A DNA stretch of 33,567 nucleotides from a virus (Duplodnaviria; Caudoviricetes). The DNA lies in IMG/VR virus record IMGVR_UViG_3300016484_001207, positions 1-33,567 of that record; one strand, given 5' to 3'. Positions 3,106-16,885 of this stretch are shown here, in pieces (position 1 is the stretch's first letter; each line of letters begins with the position of its first letter). The notes under the pieces were generated by a model that was not told the DNA's origin, did not search any database, and saw only the letters and a list, made by a program, of their open reading frames with translations. The position numbers and the translations under genes were made by a program.

Positions 3106-3420
3106 ATGAACAATAAAGACAAACCACAGTTTGCAAAAAACATCATCTTTTTAAGGAACCAGCTAAAACTTACACAGGAAGAAGCCAGCCGGCTGGCAGA
3201 TGTGCCCATTGGCACATGGGCCAGTTATGAGGAAGGCAGGGCTGCACCCAGGCTTATTAATTTACCAAAGGTATTAACGGTGCTGCAGTTTACTGATGTG
3301 GATGCATTGGTAAATAAAGACCTTGCCAATTTGGAAATGGAAAAAACTGCAGGCCCCGATTTGAACCGGATAAAACTGCTGCTATTTGAATTGAATAAAC
3401 ATTTTGGAATAAAGAAATGA
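3106..3420 (+). CDS. XRE-family helix-turn-helix regulator
   Basis: FAKNIIFLRNQLKLTQEEAS...TWASYEEGRAAP; start moved from 2968 to the ATG at 3106 to avoid overlap with the upstream gene. Confidence 0.85.
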   Translation: MNNKDKPQFAKNIIFLRNQLKLTQEEASRLADVPIGTWASYEEGRAAPRLINLPKVLTVLQFTDVDALVNKDLANLEMEKTAGPDLNRIKLLLFELNKHFGIKK

Positions 3421-5597
3421 AAAAGACAATGGAAAATCAACCACAATTTTTAATAGTAGATCTGTTTTGCGGCGCCGGCGGCACCACCACAGGCTTTGCC
3501 ATGGCAAACAATGGCATAGCCAAAGTAATAGCCTGTGTAAACCACGATGCAAAAGCAATAGAAAGCCACTGGAAAAACCACCCTGAAGTAAAGCATTTTG
3601 AAGAAGACATAAGAACGCTGGATTTAACAGAGCTGATTGAAGTAGTAAAGTTTCAGCGCTCACTATACCCACAAGCAAAACTAATACTGTGGGCCAGTTT
3701 AGAGTGTACAAATTTCAGCAAAGCAAAAGGCGGCCAGCCACGGGATGCAGACAGCCGTACACTGGCAGAACATTTAGAGCGCTACATTTTAGCCATTAAC
3801 CCCGATTATATACAAATTGAAAATGTAGTGGAATTTATGAGCTGGGGGCCTTTAATATCAAAGGTTACCAAAACAGATGAAGGTTTTGATTGCTGTAAAG
3901 TTTTTTACACTGAAATGTATGAATACGTTTTAGATGCTGACGGAGATTATGTAATGGAAGAAATCTATGAAAATGGTGTTTATTTAGGAAATGAAATGAA
4001 ACAACAAAAGTCTGGTGAAATAAAAGTTAGTTTTATTGGTACTCCTGAAAATAAAAAAAATGGGCAGGATTTTGTAAGGTGGAAAAATAAGGTGTGCAGT
4101 CATGGCTATCGTGACGAATGGAAAGAATTAAACAGCGCCAACTTTGGAGCATACACCAGCCGCAACCGTCTGTTTGGAGTATTTGCAAAGCCCGGTTTGC
4201 CAATAGCCTGGCCACAGCCAACACATGCAAAAAATCCATCCAAATTTTCAATGTACGGCGATTTACAAAAATGGAAAGCAGTAAAAGAAGTGCTGGATTT
4301 TACTGATGAAGGCGAAAGTATTTTCAACCGCAAAAAACCGCTTAGCGATAAAACACTCGAACGCATTTATGCCGGTTTAGAAAAATATGTGGCCAAAGGA
4401 GATAAAAGTTTCATCAGCAAATATTACAGCGGCCGGCCTGCAGGTAAAGTAACCAGTGTTAACCAACCAGGCGGCACCATAACAACTGCAGCAACACAGG
4501 CACTGGTAAATGCCAGCTTTATAATGCAGCGAAATTCAGGTAATCCTGAAAGTAAAATTGTAAATGTAGATGGCCCTGCACGTACATTAACAAGCACAGG
4601 CGGCAATCAGGATTTGGTGCAGGCTGAGTTTTTAATGCAAACCTATGCCGGTAATTCTTTAAAGGCAACTAATGAGCCTGCAAATACAATTACTACAAGG
4701 TTTCACCCTCACTTAGTGCAGCCAGTTTGTTTATTAAAATACGATAGTACCGATAAAACAGGTAAGCATTACCCGCCATCGGTAGATGCACCATGCCCCG
4801 TAATAATTGCACAGGGCAGGTTGGGTATTATCAATGCTCAGTTTATACAGCATTACTATGGCAATGGTTTTACCACCGATACAAATGAGCCATGCCCAAC
4901 ACTAACAACAAAAGAAAGATGTGCATTAGTGCAGCCAGAGTTTCTGGTAAATTTTAATCATAGTAGTAAAAGTAATGACATAAATGAGCCTTCGCCAACA
5001 CTTTTAACCAGAGATAAATTAGCAATTGCAAAGCCAGAGTTTTTAAGCAATCAAAACCAAAGCATAAACGATCCTGCCGGCACTGTAATGCCTAATGATA
5101 AACACAGGTTGGTGGAAGCGGTGCCATTTATCATGCCAACCAATTATGATAACACGCCAAAATCTGTTGATGATCCAGCGCCAACATTACAGGCAAGCCG
5201 CCGGCATCATTACATAATCAATCCATCACACGGCGGGCACAGCACTGCAATTGATGCCCCATGCCCGGTTGTAATTGCCCGGCAAGATAAAGCGCCATTA
5301 TATCTGGTAAATGTTGAAAACGGCGCAGCTGCAATACCACTGTATGAAGATGAGCCGGAAGTAATGCACCGCATAAAAATGTTTATGGCCGTGTTTGGTT
5401 TGGTTGATATAAAAATGCGTATGCTCAGGGTTTTAGAGCTGTTGAAAATACAAGGCTTCCCGGCTGATTATGTACTGTGTGGCAACCAGAGCGATCAAAA
5501 AAAGTTTATCGGTAACAGTGTAGTACCACAAGTTGTAAAAGCTTGGATTGAAGCAATGGGAGAAAAATTAATTAGTGAATTTAAAAATGCTGCGTAA
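3417..5597 (+). CDS. C5 cytosine DNA methyltransferase with repeat-expanded variable region
   Basis: Motif I DLFCGAGG, motif IV variant WASLECTNFS, motif VI IENV, SRNRLF, ELLKIQGFP, IGNSV; start may be 3429. Confidence 0.93.
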   Translation: MKKTMENQPQFLIVDLFCGAGGTTTGFAMANNGIAKVIACVNHDAKAIESHWKNHPEVKHFEEDIRTLDLTELIEVVKFQRSLYPQAKLILWASLECTNFSKAKGGQPRDADSRTLAEHLERYILAINPDYIQIENVVEFMSWGPLISKVTKTDEGFDCCKVFYTEMYEYVLDADGDYVMEEIYENGVYLGNEMKQQKSGEIKVSFIGTPENKKNGQDFVRWKNKVCSHGYRDEWKELNSANFGAYTSRNRLFGVFAKPGLPIAWPQPTHAKNPSKFSMYGDLQKWKAVKEVLDFTDEGESIFNRKKPLSDKTLERIYAGLEKYVAKGDKSFISKYYSGRPAGKVTSVNQPGGTITTAATQALVNASFIMQRNSGNPESKIVNVDGPARTLTSTGGNQDLVQAEFLMQTYAGNSLKATNEPANTITTRFHPHLVQPVCLLKYDSTDKTGKHYPPSVDAPCPVIIAQGRLGIINAQFIQHYYGNGFTTDTNEPCPTLTTKERCALVQPEFLVNFNHSSKSNDINEPSPTLLTRDKLAIAKPEFLSNQNQSINDPAGTVMPNDKHRLVEAVPFIMPTNYDNTPKSVDDPAPTLQASRRHHYIINPSHGGHSTAIDAPCPVVIARQDKAPLYLVNVENGAAAIPLYEDEPEVMHRIKMFMAVFGLVDIKMRMLRVLELLKIQGFPADYVLCGNQSDQKKFIGNSVVPQVVKAWIEAMGEKLISEFKNAA

Positions 5598-5727
5598 AAC
5601 GGATTTGGGCTTTGCGATGTGGTGGCATTCAAGGCTCGTCAGTTCAAATAACCACCAAAGCTGATTAGATGTACACAGCTTAATTTTTGTACGTCAGCCA
5701 CCATATAGCAAAACCCCTGTTATATGC
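5592..5727 (+). repeat. attC-like hairpin site 1
   Basis: GCGTAAAAC (5592-5600) ... arms 5607-5626/5697-5716 (17/20 complementary) ... GTTATATGC (5719-5727); overlaps the MTase stop codon. Confidence 0.75.
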
Positions 5728-5758
5728 TGTGCTTTTTTAGGGGTAAAAATTATTCAAA

Positions 5759-6244
5759 ATGGATAGAAACACATACAGAGGTCGTGGATTTGTCAGAGTA
5801 CAAAGATTTCCTGAACGCTACGAAAAAACAGCTTTTGTTTATGGTGATTTTCATAAAGATTATGATGGTAGTTTATATCACTACATCACTAAACTACCTG
5901 ATATGGAAAATGAGTTTCAAACAAGTTTTTACAATGTTGAAAGCAATACAGTTACTCAATGTACTGGATTGAAAGATAAAAATGGAACGCCAATTTTTGA
6001 AGGCGATATAATTAAGTACACAGCACACGAAAAATATTTACTACCTACATTTTTTGCAACCGTTGTATTTGAGGAAGATTACGCCTATTTCGGTTACAAA
6101 AGAGCCGACCAAAATAATTATGGATATGCTACGCCATTTTCCGACCACGATGAATTAAAAACGGACTTTTTAAATTTTGTCGAAGTTGTCGGCAATATTT
6201 GGGATAATCAAATTTCGGAACTGGTCGCACAGCATAGCATATAA
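5759..6244 (+). CDS. YopX-family protein (cassette 1)
   Basis: QCTGLKDKNGTPIFEGDII and EVVGNIWDN motifs. Confidence 0.9.
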   Translation: MDRNTYRGRGFVRVQRFPERYEKTAFVYGDFHKDYDGSLYHYITKLPDMENEFQTSFYNVESNTVTQCTGLKDKNGTPIFEGDIIKYTAHEKYLLPTFFATVVFEEDYAYFGYKRADQNNYGYATPFSDHDELKTDFLNFVEVVGNIWDNQISELVAQHSI

Positions 6245-6370
6245 CGTTGAAGCATTGGCGATGTTGCCGATTTTAAAAACAAATGTTCAATTAACCACAA
6301 AAGCTAAATATATGCAATCAGTTGAAAATATGCAGTCCAGCGGCAATATTGCCAATGCAGTGTTGCCTGC
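6237..6370 (+). repeat. attC-like hairpin site 2
   Basis: GCATATAAC (6237-6245) ... arms 6252-6269/6341-6358 (16/18) ... GTTGCCTGC (6362-6370); loop 6285-6314 is 25/30 identical to site 1 loop 5642-5671. Confidence 0.8.
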
Positions 6371-6968
6371 TGTGGCATGGTTAGAGTGCTGCTCCTGCGG
6401 CAATCAAATTGAGGAAGATTATTACAGGGAGAAGGACAATGAGATTTACTGCGATAATTGCTACGAAGAACAATTTCAATTTCATTGCCCTATCTGCGAA
6501 GAATACCACGACAAAACAGGAACACCCGAAAAAACATTCTTCTACCTGCATGAGCAACACGGCAATTTGAAACCTGGCTATTACCGTGTAAAAGACTTTC
6601 CTGTTTTCATTTCCGATATGTTCAGTGCATGGATTTGCGAAGGTGCTGTGGAGTTGGCAAGTAAAAACGTTTGCTATAAGTACGAGGGAAAACTTAAAGC
6701 AACTGAATTTATTTGCGAAGATTGTTTTAATGAAAAAGGACTAAGCCAATGGCGTGTAGAAAGACATATCCATTATGCTATGAACAAAGCATACAAGCCA
6801 CGCAAGTACAAGAACTACAAAAGAGTGATTGTAACGGTGTCACCTGAATACTTTGAAATTATGGGCGGTAAAATCCGCTTCAAAAATGTCAGTCTAAAGA
6901 AGGATGAAAGCAAAAAAGTACAGCAGTTGTCTGTCCAATTTGAATTAGAGGAAAGCTCAAAGCCATAG
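6312..6968 (+). CDS. Multi-CxxC zinc-finger-like protein (cassette 2)
   Basis: CCSC, CDNC, CPIC, CEDC motifs; start uncertain (ATG 6312 or 6330 inside site 2; the track's 6177 start overlaps yopX). Confidence 0.75.
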   Translation: MQSVENMQSSGNIANAVLPAVAWLECCSCGNQIEEDYYREKDNEIYCDNCYEEQFQFHCPICEEYHDKTGTPEKTFFYLHEQHGNLKPGYYRVKDFPVFISDMFSAWICEGAVELASKNVCYKYEGKLKATEFICEDCFNEKGLSQWRVERHIHYAMNKAYKPRKYKNYKRVIVTVSPEYFEIMGGKIRFKNVSLKKDESKKVQQLSVQFELEESSKP

Positions 6969-7130
6969 CAGGCAACGCCCAGAAATTGCCGATGTGCGCC
7001 ACGAACCGGATGGAATCCGGGGTAAAGTGGTAAACATCGGTTGAGGCAGACGGCGCATATTGGCAATTTGATGTAGGCCGCCGTACGGCTTTTGTGGATG
7101 GCCTGCCGAATTTTCTGGGCGTAGGAACGC
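6968..7130 (+). repeat. attC-like hairpin site 3 (extended form)
   Basis: GCAGGCAAC (6968-6976); arms 6983-7000/7052-7069 (16/18); GTAGGCCGC at 7073; extra outer stem 6975-6985/7112-7122 followed by GTAGGAACGC. Confidence 0.75.
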
Positions 7131-7352
7131 CATAAGTAAGGACGGGAAATGAGGAACGAATTGAAGTCGTTACGGCTTTCACTCTAAGGGGTCAGGTGCC
7201 TGAAAGGGATATACTGTAGATAAGGTTCACACCACTGACTGCCGCAGTGGGATCTGGGGCGATGCCCACCGAGACGCAGGGAACAGGTCGGGCCATTAGA
7301 CAGCTAAGTGAACCCTCGCTGACCTCTTAGAGTGAAAGTATGGCGGTCCTAC
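7121..7352 (+). ncRNA. Putative structured non-coding RNA/cassette of unknown family
   Basis: Closing stem 7121-7134/7339-7352 (13/14), 21-bp stem 7175-7195/7319-7339 (two G-U), inner stems GGTTCAC/GTGAACC and CCACTG/CAGTGG; GC-richer than its flanks; no credible ORF. Confidence 0.6.
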
Positions 7353-7510
7353 GGGCTCCGGATTGCCGAAGTTCGCTGCGCTTTTAAGTGTAACGAAAAA
7401 GCAAGCAGTGAACGAGGCAAAGGTTTCTGCGAATTTTGGCAATCCGATGCTGGACGCTGCCCTGGTTGCCAAAGAGAGCAGTTACCTTTTTCCGGAGCCC
7501 GCTGGAACGC
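7345..7510 (+). repeat. attC-like hairpin site 4 (extended form)
   Basis: GGTCCTAC (7345-7352); arms 7360-7376/7429-7445 (15/17); GCTGGACGC at 7449; outer stem 7352-7362/7491-7501 followed by GCTGGAACGC. Confidence 0.7.
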
Positions 7511-7624
7511 AAAGAAAGCTATAGGAGTGAAGAATGAACGGACAGATTTCGTCCCTTAACCGATTCTTTTTTTCTTTTTAAAGCTGCGGAGCATTGTTTT
7601 ATAAAAACAAATAACAATAAAAAA

Positions 7625-8272
7625 ATGGAAAATTTATTTACAGAAAATTGTATCAGAACTTACTCTGGCATTTACTTCAATGTTTTTGACCCAAAGCCTG
7701 AAATGGTTAACATAAATGATATTGCCCACGCATTATCTATGCAGCCAAGATTTGGAGGGCATCTACCTGAATTTTATTCAGTAGCACAGCACAGTATTCA
7801 TGTGTGTGATAAATTATCTGATGGCAACGAAATATACGGGTTGTTGCATGATGCATCCGAAGCTTATTTAATAGATATGCCAAGACCTGTAAAAAAAGGG
7901 CTTACGAATTATAAAGAAATTGAGGAAAAGATTATGAAGGTAATATCTGATGCCTTTGGCTTGGTTTATAATAAGTTTCTTTTTCAAAGTCTCAAAAATG
8001 CAGATAATGAAATGTTGCAAATAGAGTGGGATTCGTTGATGATTGGTAAAAACAATACTCTGAATTGTCTGAATCAATTTGAAGCGAAGTTATATTTTCT
8101 CAACAGATACGATTTTTTAACCGGGAACGATAAAATACAATCTGAACCAGCGGCCGCCCCTGCCATCAACGTGGAAAAGAAGGAGGGAAAGGAGGTTTGC
8201 CAACATGATTGGGATAATACAAAAGCTGGTAATTATTGTAAAGTTTGTGATAAGTATTTTGATGATGAATGA
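7625..8272 (+). CDS. HD-domain phosphohydrolase (YfbR/YfdR-like 5'-deoxynucleotidase)
   Basis: DIAHALS..PRFGGH..EFYSVAQHS, LLHDASEAY..DMPRPVK; extra C-terminal CQH...CKVC tail. Confidence 0.88.
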   Translation: MENLFTENCIRTYSGIYFNVFDPKPEMVNINDIAHALSMQPRFGGHLPEFYSVAQHSIHVCDKLSDGNEIYGLLHDASEAYLIDMPRPVKKGLTNYKEIEEKIMKVISDAFGLVYNKFLFQSLKNADNEMLQIEWDSLMIGKNNTLNCLNQFEAKLYFLNRYDFLTGNDKIQSEPAAAPAINVEKKEGKEVCQHDWDNTKAGNYCKVCDKYFDDE

Positions 8273-8303: not shown

Positions 8304-8576
8304 TTATTTGATTATCTCTGCATCCACCGCCTTTATAATATCCTCCAGCAGTTGCCGGTTTACTTTTCCTCTGTCAACCATATCAAAATTGGCGGTTACA
8401 ACCTGCCAGGCATTTTGTTTGCGGAATTTATATTTTACCAGCAGTAGTACTTTTTGCCCGGCTGTTACTTTTATGCGGTACACATGCTTTGTTTCTGCTA
8501 CCACTTCCACCTTTGCATGGTACTGTACCGGATCGTACATTTTGCGAAAATAGATTGTAAATTCTTTGGGTAACAT
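8304..8576 (-). CDS. Hypothetical protein, antisense moron-like gene
   Basis: 90-aa ORF filling the gap between + strand genes, with a promoter box directly upstream. Confidence 0.7.
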   Translation of the reverse strand: MLPKEFTIYFRKMYDPVQYHAKVEVVAETKHVYRIKVTAGQKVLLLVKYKFRKQNAWQVVTANFDMVDRGKVNRQLLEDIIKAVDAEIIK

Positions 8577-8725: not shown

Positions 8726-9190
8726 ATGTCGCAAGTTCAAGGGTACACAAATCGCACTTTTAAAGCATTGGGAAGAATCCTTTTGCACAAGTATCCTGCA
8801 ATTGCAGAAGAGCTGATTCCTTTTTGCCAGGCTGAAGGTGAAACAGACATGGATTTGCTGCCCGGCTACTTTAAGCGCTTTTGCGAAATAAAGCAAATAA
8901 ACCCGCTGGAACACATTGGCGAATTACGCAGCGACCGGGAAAAGATGAACAACCGCATGTTATTTGTTGCCTGTATGCTCCACATCTACAATCAGCACAT
9001 CTTTCATACCAATGGCTCCACTCCATTCTTCCGCCGTGGTTTTGTTAAGCACTTATCGGAATGCCAAAGCATAAGCCCTACTAACATAAGCCTGATGATT
9101 CGCAAAGTAATGGTGCATGAACGTGTTTATGATGATTTTAAAAAAGAGATACAGTCAATTGTTAATCAGCTAAAACAAACTGTAAACTAA
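8726..9190 (+). CDS. Hypothetical protein (first gene of the late operon)
   Basis: 154-aa ORF coupled by TAATG to the next gene. Confidence 0.75.
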   Translation: MSQVQGYTNRTFKALGRILLHKYPAIAEELIPFCQAEGETDMDLLPGYFKRFCEIKQINPLEHIGELRSDREKMNNRMLFVACMLHIYNQHIFHTNGSTPFFRRGFVKHLSECQSISPTNISLMIRKVMVHERVYDDFKKEIQSIVNQLKQTVN

Positions 9191-14372: not shown

Positions 14373-16115
14373 TTGCCGCCGATTAATCCATACGACCTGC
14401 AGCAGCTAAAAAACCAGGCTGTAATAAATAAACGAATCCTGAAAATATATCAGGATTCAATTGCTTCATTAACTCCAACGCTCAGCACTATCACTTACAA
14501 TGGCAAGCCTTTCCGGTTGTCCGATTATCCAAAACTAAAACAGCGTGTTGATGCCCTTGCAAAAAAACTGCAGGGCGACATTTATTCTGCAACCGTCAAC
14601 GGCATAAAAGACAGCTGGAAACTATCTAACAAAAAGAATGATGTGCTGGTTGATAAGCGCCTTGCAGGGCGCAAGCCAAAGCCTGCTGTAAGAAAGGTTT
14701 TGTATGATGCCAATGCACCGGCGCTGGATAAGTTTATTAATCGTAAAGAAAACGGCTTAAACCTGAGCGACCGTGTTTGGAATTTAACAGAGCCATTTAA
14801 AAAAGAGCTGGAACAGGGTTTGGGCATTGGCATTGGTAAGGGAAGGCCTGCAAAAGAAATGGCTAAAGATTTAAAGCAATACCTTAATGAGCCCGACAGA
14901 TTATACCGCCGTGTACGTGGTGAAGATGGCAAGCTCCATTTATCTGCTGAAGCCCGTAATTACCACCCAGGGCAGGGCGTGTATCGCAGTAGTTATAAAA
15001 ATGCATTGCGGCTTACCAGAACTGAAAACAACGGCGCTTACCGCACCGCTGATTTTGAACGCTGGCAACAGTTGCCATTTATCACCGGCATTCATATCAA
15101 ACTATCCAATGCACATCCGGTATATGACATTTGTGACCGCATGGTTGGTTTATATCCAAAAGACTTTAAGTTTTTTGGCTGGCATCCGCAATGCCTTTGT
15201 TATGCCACGCCTGAACAAATGAGTGATGAAGAATATAACAGGCTGGAAGATCAGATATTAAACGGACAGCCGATAACAGTTTCCGGTGCCAACGTGGTGC
15301 AGCATCCGCCGGCTGAGTTTGGCAATTACATTAAGGAAAACAAGGCCATGCTGGACCGTATGAAAAACAAACCCTATTGGATGCGTGACAATCCTGATTA
15401 TGTGCAATCTGCTGTTAAAGCAGTTGATAAGCCGCTGCCGGTTGCCGGTGCACAACGCATCAGCACACAGTTTACTAAAATTTCACCCGCTGTAAAACCA
15501 TATGCAACCCATGCACTGCAGTCAATTGATGCGGTACATGGTGATGGCATACTGGATGATATCCCTTTTGTAAAATCCAGATCAACAAAATACAATGGTG
15601 CATTTACATCCGATACACTTGGCCGGGCAAAAGAAATATCATTAACCAATTTAGGTATTAGCAATGCCCCTGAAATAACCATGGCACATGAAATGGGCCA
15701 CTACCTGGACTTGTATGCCGTTGGCAAAAAAGGAAGCTGGAATTCCTTACAAAAAGATTCACCTATTGCAAAAGTGGTATCAGTTGCACGGGAATCTAAA
15801 GCAATGAAGAATATTGAAGCCCTTGTAAACAATGGCTATGTTGAAGTAAATGGTAAAAAGATTTGGCACAGCGGAAAAATTAAAAAGCATCTTAACTACC
15901 TTAACAATCCCAAAGAAGTTTGGGCCCGTGCTTATGCACAGTTTATTGCAGAAAAAAGCGGTTCGCAAAAAATGATTGAAGGTTTAGAAACTACTATTGC
16001 CAGAGACAGGAAGCGCAAATTTTGGGCTTATCAATGGGAGACGGAAGATTTTGCGGATATAAGTGCAGCTATAGAAAAGATGATGATTGATGAAGGCTGG
16101 ATTGTTAGTCAATAA
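14373..16115 (+). CDS. Minor head morphogenesis protein (MuF/gp7-like) with C-terminal zincin-like domain
   Basis: ALRLTRTE, ICD, GWHPQCLC MuF motifs; HEMGH at 15687-15701 and downstream EVWARAYAQ; TTG start. Confidence 0.82.
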   Translation: MPPINPYDLQQLKNQAVINKRILKIYQDSIASLTPTLSTITYNGKPFRLSDYPKLKQRVDALAKKLQGDIYSATVNGIKDSWKLSNKKNDVLVDKRLAGRKPKPAVRKVLYDANAPALDKFINRKENGLNLSDRVWNLTEPFKKELEQGLGIGIGKGRPAKEMAKDLKQYLNEPDRLYRRVRGEDGKLHLSAEARNYHPGQGVYRSSYKNALRLTRTENNGAYRTADFERWQQLPFITGIHIKLSNAHPVYDICDRMVGLYPKDFKFFGWHPQCLCYATPEQMSDEEYNRLEDQILNGQPITVSGANVVQHPPAEFGNYIKENKAMLDRMKNKPYWMRDNPDYVQSAVKAVDKPLPVAGAQRISTQFTKISPAVKPYATHALQSIDAVHGDGILDDIPFVKSRSTKYNGAFTSDTLGRAKEISLTNLGISNAPEITMAHEMGHYLDLYAVGKKGSWNSLQKDSPIAKVVSVARESKAMKNIEALVNNGYVEVNGKKIWHSGKIKKHLNYLNNPKEVWARAYAQFIAEKSGSQKMIEGLETTIARDRKRKFWAYQWETEDFADISAAIEKMMIDEGWIVSQ

Positions 16116-16284
16116 TTACATACTCATCTTCATTTTCTGCAATGGTAATTATTGTTTCAGTTTCTTCAGGCAGCAGGTTCAGCATTTCAGTCATGTAAAA
16201 ATATTCCTCAGCATCTGTGAGCGGTTCGCTGTTTTCCAGCTTTTGTATGATGAGCTTTTTAAGCTGCTGTTGTTCGTTTGTCAT
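16105..16284 (-). CDS. Small acidic protein, 59 aa (not in the ORF track)
   Basis: MTNEQQQLKKLIIQKLENSEPLTDAEEYFYMTEMLNLLPEETETIITIAENEDEYVIID*; ATGA overlap with the upstream antisense ORF. Confidence 0.65.
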   Translation of the reverse strand: MTNEQQQLKKLIIQKLENSEPLTDAEEYFYMTEMLNLLPEETETIITIAENEDEYVIID

Positions 16285-16469
16285 GATAGGTTTAATCTTC
16301 TTTTTATACTACTGAATAAACCCTCAAAAGCATTTACAAATTTATAAATTGCAAAACTAAATGTGTTTCTCAGTCTATTCAACTCATCATTAGAAAGTTC
16401 TTCAAAAGCAGGCATTCCGTCAATGTGAATCCTGCTATAATAAAATTCTTTAAGCATTAAATTTTCCAT
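16281..16469 (-). CDS. Hypothetical protein, 62 aa
   Basis: Middle gene of the antisense cluster; TAATTTTA box (16474-16481) 4 nt before the ATG. Confidence 0.6.
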   Translation of the reverse strand: MENLMLKEFYYSRIHIDGMPAFEELSNDELNRLRNTFSFAIYKFVNAFEGLFSSIKRRLNLS

Positions 16470-16507
16470 ACTGTAAAATTAAAAAGTTTTCCAGCCAATT
16501 CATAGCC

Positions 16508-16885
16508 CTATCTTGGCCGCTCCTCCCTCATCTTTTTCAACTTCACCATAAAATCAAGTGCATCATCCTGTTGTATCCGCTTCATTAATTTGTGCAGCCA
16601 GCTGTTTAACAAAACAGTTTCAAACATTGGGTTGTAATCTTTGTATGCCCTTCTTATTTCATACTGCGTTTCATTAATGATGTACTCCCACCGGCTAAAT
16701 GGTACCTGATCTGATTCTTCAATGATTTTATCAGAAAGTTTTGTTGCATCCGGCTCACTGTAAAAGATTCTAAGCCTCAAAAACAGGCTCTTTACCATTT
16801 GCGATGCATTCACTTCATCTTTAAAAATAAGCAAACATCCAGCCAGCGGATCATCCATAATGCTATTTACGCCAATACCTTCCAT
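16508..16885 (-). CDS. Hypothetical protein, 125 aa
   Basis: First gene of the antisense cluster; no competing + strand ORF. Confidence 0.65.
   Translation of the reverse strand: MEGIGVNSIMDDPLAGCLLIFKDEVNASQMVKSLFLRLRIFYSEPDATKLSDKIIEESDQVPFSRWEYIINETQYEIRRAYKDYNPMFETVLLNSWLHKLMKRIQQDDALDFMVKLKKMREERPR

Follow-up and report, generated by a model that had tools for sequence, protein, structure and literature searches.

We describe here an array of gene cassettes bounded by folded recombination sites in a tailed phage (Duplodnaviria; Caudoviricetes), IMG/VR record IMGVR_UViG_3300016484_001207, of which the whole stretch analyzed (positions 1–33,567) is called the window. The four hairpins of this array are real but not equivalent: sites 1 and 2 are typical members of a family of hairpins that is also found in other viral contigs, and sites 3 and 4 are altered. 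That the two cassettes headed by sites 1 and 2 are real and mobile we regard as almost certain, and there is a good chance that they are moved by an integron-like mechanism acting on single-stranded DNA, with a short tyrosine recombinase resembling XerA and IntI. The initial annotation of this DNA, made without database searches, had proposed a cassette capture and shuffling system of a phage, atypical when compared with integron attC sites; the exchanged neighbours and the complementary cassette ends (13 of 14 positions) reported below bear this out.

The hairpins lie at the places, and show the spacings, that had been given for them. In sites 1 to 4, the C of the left core is at positions 5600, 6245, 6976, and 7352 and the G of the right core at 5719, 6362, 7073, and 7449, respectively; the C of a conserved CGA(T/A)GT follows the core C by 15, 14, 14, and 15 nt, and AT(A/T)T ends 13 nt ahead of the right-core G in all four. 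Stop codons at 5595, 6242, and 6966 fall within or just ahead of the left cores of sites 1–3, in agreement with the overlap with upstream genes that had been noticed. Folding of the top strand as DNA gives z-scores of −3.1, −1.5, −3.5, and −3.9 against 100 dinucleotide shuffles, the fold of site 2 being equalled by 8 of the 100. A covariance model was built from 47 family sites of other viral contigs, including a 72% relative of site 1 (L002:501–626). It assigns 67 bits to site 1 (5595..5722, + strand) and 64 bits to site 2 (6242..6365, + strand) versus 24 bits to site 4 and 15 bits to site 3, and the remaining nine matches in the window have E-values of 0.23 or worse. The spacings claimed for the common architecture hold in all four sites, with sites 3 and 4 being poor matches to the family model. 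No Rfam family matches the hairpin sites.

The 47 aligned sites represent the commonest spacing class and were chosen for ungapped pairing. Within them, 93% of the cells of the alignment pair versus 63% after shuffling, and 18 of the 19 arm pairs covary with changes on both sides (score 0.68 vs. 0.15 shuffled), so that the earlier remark that arms differ in sequence and keep their pairing applies to the family as a whole. AAC and GTT cores together with maintained pairing are found in sites 1 and 2 and in the family, whereas the cores of sites 3 and 4 are altered. The arms run in register without single bulged bases in the aligned sites. In this sense the reported absence of extrahelical bases is correct, but the helix contains other irregularities: a constant stretch of 4–5 unpaired nt faces 1 nt beside the left core, one arm pair is G.T in 40 of the 47 sites, and another is mismatched in 25 of the 47. 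Folding favours the strand on which AAC precedes this bulge in 90% of the 150 viral and 82% of the 90 bacterial sites considered; in phages this is the coding strand. A minimal class of sites, with a body of 40–41 nt and a shared short loop, was also observed (L002:1154–1195, L010, L032), and P12002L_attC1 belongs to this class.

Cassette 1 (5600..6244, + strand) contains the hairpin of site 1 and a gene of the YopX family (5759–6244; Pfam YopX); cassette 2 (6245..6975, + strand) contains the hairpin of site 2 and a gene of unknown function encoding a cysteine-rich (CxxC) protein (6312–6968), whose likely start codon (6312 or 6330) is part of site 2. This protein has a weak, below cut-off match to a LIM domain in Pfam, and the sole match found in the search for its relatives covers 20 residues and stems from the shared hairpin. 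The bases following the right core of one site are complementary to those preceding the left core of the next at 13 of 14 positions in cassettes 1 and 2, and the third unit reaches the same value with the repeated right flank described below, compared with 8, 9, 7, and 5 of 14 when the two flanks of sites 1–4 are considered within one site. The chance of finding 10 of 11 free bases complementary is about 4e-5 per pair. In viral loci (36 stretches found by a degenerate pattern), flank complementarity beyond the core has a mean of 0.74 for 79 neighbouring pairs versus 0.32 within 119 sites.

Comparison with related loci (L numbers) and with contigs of metagenome runs (X numbers) locates the cassette borders. 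L001 and L002 share the DNA of the window from 5598 to 6245–6247, that is from left core to left core, and have other neighbours outside; the match of L004 starts at 5598 and is ended by the contig end, and the L003 match begins within the gene and stops at 6245. The same left limit is seen in X15, which has a loose end before 5598, and in X2, whose record starts at 5598. Independent contigs, from the runs X3 and X5, match exactly positions 6242–6977, both flanks being unlike the window, and different hairpin bodies follow position 6977 in four metagenome runs. Among 44 site pairs with bodies at least 85% alike, which are not independent of each other, 13 differ upstream only, none downstream only, 30 on both sides, and one on neither. 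A cassette is therefore composed of a hairpin, then a gene, then a short complementary end, the hairpin traveling with the gene downstream of it, and the main exchange takes place at the left AAC core. This differs in two respects from the initial annotation, which had expected swaps exactly at the G/TT junctions (the right core alone accounts for 0 of the 44 pairs) and had implied the classical layout, in which a site closes the upstream gene. Because IntI cleaves the folded strand at AAC (PMC4792948), the exact cut is expected, by analogy, between the second A and the C, which would set the crossover of site 1 between 5599 and 5600. At site 1 the left core (5595–5600) has the sequence TAAC plus two additional A, and no partner for its flank exists upstream. 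This may be a cassette end that has decayed, or else a non-canonical target located at the stop of the methyltransferase gene that precedes the array; non-canonical "attG" targets have been considered for integron-type insertion.

New cargo can also become attached to a hairpin at the right core. This is shown by the 30 two-sided differences, by L204, in which a body 98% identical to that of site 2 is followed by another cargo gene beginning at the right core, and by the loose ends of X3 and X7 behind 6364 (right core of site 2). Of 115 viral cassettes, 43 have the first ATG of their longest frame within the hairpin, and in 22 of these 43 no further in-frame ATG occurs in the 75 nt past the core; in 92 of the 115 the gene stops in the core or at most 20 nt before it. 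Joining at the right core would provide a route to new cassettes, for which the recombinase is a candidate agent. Between the same terminal sequences of cassette 1 (5736–5744 to 6223–6228), X15 and X4 carry different cargo, which indicates that the end sequences are reused. At L001:4487 and L003:439, cassette 1 abuts sequence without hairpin or recombinase, like a last cassette at a bare target; the genes downstream in L001 are, by eye, ParB-like and queuosine-pathway-like.

An enzyme linked to such arrays was identified in relatives: 6 early loci out of 40, on five contigs, have the motif of a tyrosine recombinase right after the array; of the enzyme types that the initial annotation had suggested looking for, it is by position the tyrosine recombinase, not HUH or RT enzymes, that accompanies the sites. 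The linked enzyme comprises 266–267 residues with the catalytic motifs kept. Its best profile and its best solved structures are those of archaeal XerA, and it remains below every NCBIfam cut-off; with TIGR02249 (integron integrase) all three linked enzymes obtain 140–149 bits for a cut-off of 265. The match to VchIntIA (2a3v) splits into residues 5–177 and 260–307, with 34 query residues spanning 82 of IntI; the enzyme is devoid of the IntI (I2) insertion. An AlphaFold model of the recombinase is mediocre (pLDDT 68, C-terminus below 50) and confirms the fold class only. In a tree of 124 dereplicated sequences out of 151, unrooted, including neither IntI nor Xer, and with a bias from the phage query, all 52 viral sequences and L122 are on one side of a split with a support of 0.96.

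The position of the sites relative to this enzyme is highly regular. In the best 80 of 132 viral matches, the upstream position on the strand of the enzyme holds 204 sites and the three other positions hold 5, 11, and 0, and a site is present within 3 kb upstream in 42 of the 47 viral loci having 3 kb of upstream sequence. In the best 80 of 558 bacterial matches, mostly from Bacteroidota, 97 sites lie downstream on the other strand versus 2, 3, and 2. A motif resembling attI is located after an AAC, mostly about 57 nt before the start of the enzyme, in 51 of 73 viral loci. As the sequence preceding this AAC matches the start of the last cassette in 23 of 37 cases, the motif behaves as expected of a primary insertion site, for which it is a candidate. 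Of 66 bacterial loci, 20 have a related motif, reversed, behind the enzyme, versus 1 of 64 controls. In the cultured phages Leef_1 and Ingeline_1, an enzyme related at 32–33% ends a run of early genes with family sites. Two further loci deserve a remark: in L018 (6294–7274) a DNA methyltransferase is the last cassette before the recombinase and displays two long overlapping frames, and in L183 (5790–5867) a match to the Flavo-1 RNA is found upstream of a chromosomal family recombinase, off any site.

The hairpin precedes its gene in 115 of 128 viral cassettes and classical polarity is found in none, whereas 30 of 34 bacterial cassettes are classical (a tally that omits L121–L123 as phage-like). 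All five bacterial genomes picked from recombinase loci contain family sites, from 2 to 72 per genome. Bacteroidota chromosomes carry the same sites, beside related recombinases, with the genes in the opposite, classical polarity.

Behind cassette 2, the array continues as a gene-poor folded stretch (6976–7560) with 53% GC versus 34–45% in surrounding genes and sites. It contains site 3 with its GTA core (unit 3, 6973..7170, + strand) and site 4 with TAC and GCT cores (unit 4, 7350..7555, + strand); both units fold and can be aligned with each other. A 3′ extension of some 100 nt follows each site; it contains a second copy of the right flank (at 7121 and 7501, respectively), immediately preceded by a sequence perfectly complementary to the left spacer. 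The outer helices (6975–6985 with 7112–7122 in unit 3, 7352–7362 with 7491–7501 in unit 4) are bulge-free and each arm has a second partner; the same extra helices are kept in different sequence, and a purine-rich 3′ motif is common to both. With 60 nt of extension included, DNA folding predicts the long hairpin at 0.85 for site 1 and 0.66 for site 2, compared with 0.19 for site 3 and 0.00 for site 4. Sites 3 and 4 are likely to be ancient derivatives of sites that have ceased to function as ordinary points of crossover. The ends define a putative gene-less cassette 3 (6976..7351, + strand), whose end pairs at 13 of 14 positions with 7121–7134 and less well with 7073–7086; no + strand open reading frame (ORF) of at least 60 residues starts inside it, except at 7332. 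For site 4, the partner search gave no matching cassette end downstream. Cassette 3 includes a 21-bp inverted repeat (7175..7339, unstranded; 7175–7195 with 7319–7339, two G.T pairs) enclosing a folded core of 123 nt, which may be a MITE-like element or an RNA domain. It is flanked by an imperfect 5-nt direct repeat, and no copy was found in viral contigs or in 401 genomes of one Bacteroidota order.

For these two sites only, the 600-nt stretch could instead be a structured RNA with a function of its own, such as a transcription switch, derived from two sites; we consider this a serious possibility, if somewhat short of an even chance. Folding as RNA yields z-scores of −9.3 for 6960–7570 and of −4.2 and −5.8 for units 3 and 4, and the extra helices kept with different sequences, the shared 3′ motif, and the elevated GC content point in the same direction. 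On the other side, there are two copies only, nested inverted repeats resulting from insertions also fold well, and a comparison of 6960–7570 with Rfam gave chance matches only (E 1.3 and 8.7), with no GOLLD, ROOL, riboswitch, or ribozyme and no tRNA. Searches for relatives of the two units, which were narrow and give no proof of absence, found none by exact 20-mers in viral contigs, by a three-motif pattern in metagenomes, by BLAST or nhmmer on 206 and 80 loci, or among phage isolates, and yielded two short, chance-level matches in the 401 genomes. Two matches of a two-motif pattern in viral contigs, both in coding sequence, were judged to be due to chance. In seven metagenome runs other than the likely source, positions ~7017–7521 are without cover, an observation that carries no weight.

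The mechanism that we favour for sites 1 and 2 would operate as follows. With the coding strand folded, the recombinase would cleave it at the left AAC core, the 4–5-nt bulge together with the G.T and mismatched pairs replacing flipped-out bases as the strand signal. Once excised, the cassette would be closed into a circle of single-stranded DNA whose two joined ends lengthen the hairpin stem over the cut point (predicted gain 4–10 kcal/mol), and this circle would re-insert either into another hairpin or into the attI-like site. Cassette genes would be read from the phage early operon, many of them starting inside the hairpin. The phage of the window would borrow the enzyme from the host chromosome, from a co-resident phage, or from its own DNA beyond the window. 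Sites 3 and 4 would refold through their 3′ extensions, with cassettes 1 and 2 having been inserted in front of them.

A number of observations weigh against this reading. No recombinase was found in the window, in accordance with the initial annotation: the best tblastn result with the family integrase has an E-value of 2.0, and none is present among 23 ORFs scanned with Pfam or 11 scanned with PHROGs, some ORFs being outside both scans. The window also lacks an attI-like site. Because the site finder requires pairing and asymmetry, both the pairing counts and the orientation reflect its criteria in part. The counts around the recombinase derive from top-ranking matches, and for bacteria from 6 of 64 parts of the collection scanned, with loci that include repeats of one contig. 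The observed joints are to other cargo or other loops and are not clean excisions; neither recombination events nor cassette circles nor excision junctions were observed. Refolding also occurs outside sites 3 and 4: 9 of 40 canonical sites are below 0.5 as DNA, and as RNA it is site 2 that loses its hairpin (0.08) and site 3 that retains it (0.76). Finally, how the reaction would be resolved without the I2 helix is a weak point: I2 is described as docking the extrahelical bases, and it is held to be needed for blocking the second strand exchange, which is lethal (PMC7790495).

Alternatively, the same recombinase may act in the manner of Xer on double-stranded or cruciform DNA, with two exchanges, the hairpin being a by-product of inverted binding sites or serving at the RNA level. 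The proximity of the enzyme to archaeal XerA, both in profiles and in structures, and the absence of the I2 insertion would agree with this, but the arms vary freely with their pairing kept and the flank complementarity is restored only in the circle, both of which fit a folded substrate rather than recognition of sequence; moreover, one strand folds better than the other. We therefore judge such a double-strand reaction to be unlikely.

The hairpins could also be expression modules (ribosome site, RNA processing, or termination) next to genes that are swapped by homologous recombination between the hairpins, without a dedicated enzyme. The first ATG is indeed inside the hairpin in the 43 of 115 cassettes mentioned, and 30 of the 44 near-identical bodies differ on both sides. 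The breakpoints, on the other hand, are at the edge of the element, a few bases from the core, and not inside it, and neither the cassette-specific complementary ends nor the fixed attI-like site before the recombinase would be explained, which makes this explanation improbable. As for termination in particular, no terminator-like site was found at the four hairpins.

Least credible of all is an ordinary attC cluster without an integrase (CALIN) served by a classical IntI of the host: it would account for the AAC...GTT cores, the hairpins of ~120 nt, and the end complementarity as in integrons, and phage CALINs have been published (PMC9892861), but the linked enzyme attains 145 bits for a TIGR02249 cut-off of 265 and lacks the insertion, P12002L_attC1, the one whole family site that was tested, is given there as not verified to be integrated by IntI1, and the IntegronFinder 2.0 publication (PMC9024848), in its available portion, names one complete integron in Bacteroidetes.

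The system that we favour is closest to the integrons (IntI, attI, attC), above all to the sedentary chromosomal ones. Common features are the array of single-gene cassettes with folded AAC/GTT sites of ~120 nt, the free sequence with structure kept, the complementary cassette ends, and the single recombinase beside a putative primary site; the phage recombinase gene points as intI does relative to the sites. The phage system differs in its 267-residue enzyme without the IntI insertion, in the 4–5-nt bulge and G.T or mismatched pairs in place of single extrahelical bases, in genes that are on the folding strand, after the hairpin, and often start in it, and in an end complementarity that runs over 10–15 bases. 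Judged from sequence, it is thus integron-like in its folded sites, complementary ends, and mobile cores, yet not in its enzyme, its lack of extrahelical bases, or its polarity.

Phage CALINs, treated as ordinary attC, were described by Qi et al. in 2023 (PMC9892861). They are phage-borne as well, without integrase and with methyltransferase cargo; of six sites, P12002L_attC1 was the one not verified as integrated by IntI1, and attC2 did recombine. In our own reading, P12002L_attC1 would be a short family member before a methyltransferase gene, and the "divergent" attC2 the other end of that cassette; our site finder lists 10 candidates in P12002L versus 2 in that report, the available text of which does not mention the family, its polarity, the attI-like site, or the recombinase. 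In the Treponema integrons with an inverted integrase (PMC4889954), the recombinase points into the array as in the chromosomal Bacteroidota arrays; the Treponema integrons have a recognised IntI, whereas the phage form has its enzyme after the array and its genes flipped. XerA, XerCD, and the elements that exploit Xer, such as the CTX phage (PMC7790495), likewise involve a compact tyrosine recombinase without I2 and provide a precedent for a folded single strand, but they act at dif with host enzymes (PMC7790495) and not at many arrayed sites of diverse sequence. No description of the system was found in the literature searched, in which subscription journals are mostly uncovered, nor in the available portions of PMC8618304, 10.1101/2024.07.02.601686, PMC13700133, and PMC8352920.

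The gain of the I2 helix is thought to have given IntI access to folded single-stranded substrates, and an I2-less enzyme associated with arrays makes this account testable; such a system may be an earlier or a parallel solution. It is common (all 5 of the 5 genomes searched contain sites) in a phylum that has yielded next to nothing in integron surveys, and it provides a mechanism by which the early regions of Bacteroidota phages could become mosaic. The same hairpins joined to different genes at the right core also bear on how cassettes arise, and Leef_1, Ingeline_1, and P12002L are cultured carriers. A much broader picture is doubtful as a whole and can be put forward only tentatively: Bacteroidota phages would have integrons of their own with an I2-less enzyme acting on folded single strands, the site chemistry would be common to them and to host chromosomal arrays, a mirror polarity would separate the cassette pools, new cassettes would be made at right cores with the hairpin providing the start codon, and in the present phage two sites would have become a tandem RNA switch.

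Pfam and PHROGs identify on the contig genes for DnaB, a resolvase, a methyltransferase, terminase, portal, capsid, and tail proteins. The named relatives of the capsid protein, at 57–58% identity, are from Bacteroidota. The window is probably a partial genome, because an identical capsid protein is encoded on a 53,826-base contig on record. Downstream of the array is a gene for an HD-type nucleotide phosphatase (7625..8272, + strand; PHROG 318), approximately where, in the layout of relatives, the attI-like site and the recombinase are placed; viral and metagenome contigs yielded no loci related to it. In L272, the last 37 residues of a recombinase directly precede a homolog of the gene at 8726, a faint hint that a recombinase can occupy the position held by the HD gene in this phage. 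Since the closest terminase relatives (L207 and L214; 72%) are without the methyltransferase gene, the array, and the HD gene altogether, this block appears to be accessory. Small genes on the minus strand (8304–8576 and 16105–16885) oppose the flow of the late region, and those scanned matched no family in Pfam or PHROGs.

The gene upstream of the array encodes a C5 DNA methyltransferase (3417..5597, + strand; Pfam DNA_methylase), and its stop overlaps the left flank of site 1. Its 3′ flank has no partner end upstream of the gene within 2 mismatches, and the nearby match of the covariance model (3275–3384) reaches merely 10.5 bits (E 3.2); the gene is best viewed as an upstream neighbour and at most as a putative cassette. 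Between 4500 and 5300 it contains internal repeats of ~99 nt (4878–4943 and 4977–5042 being 71% alike), which are likely to be repeated target-recognition units.

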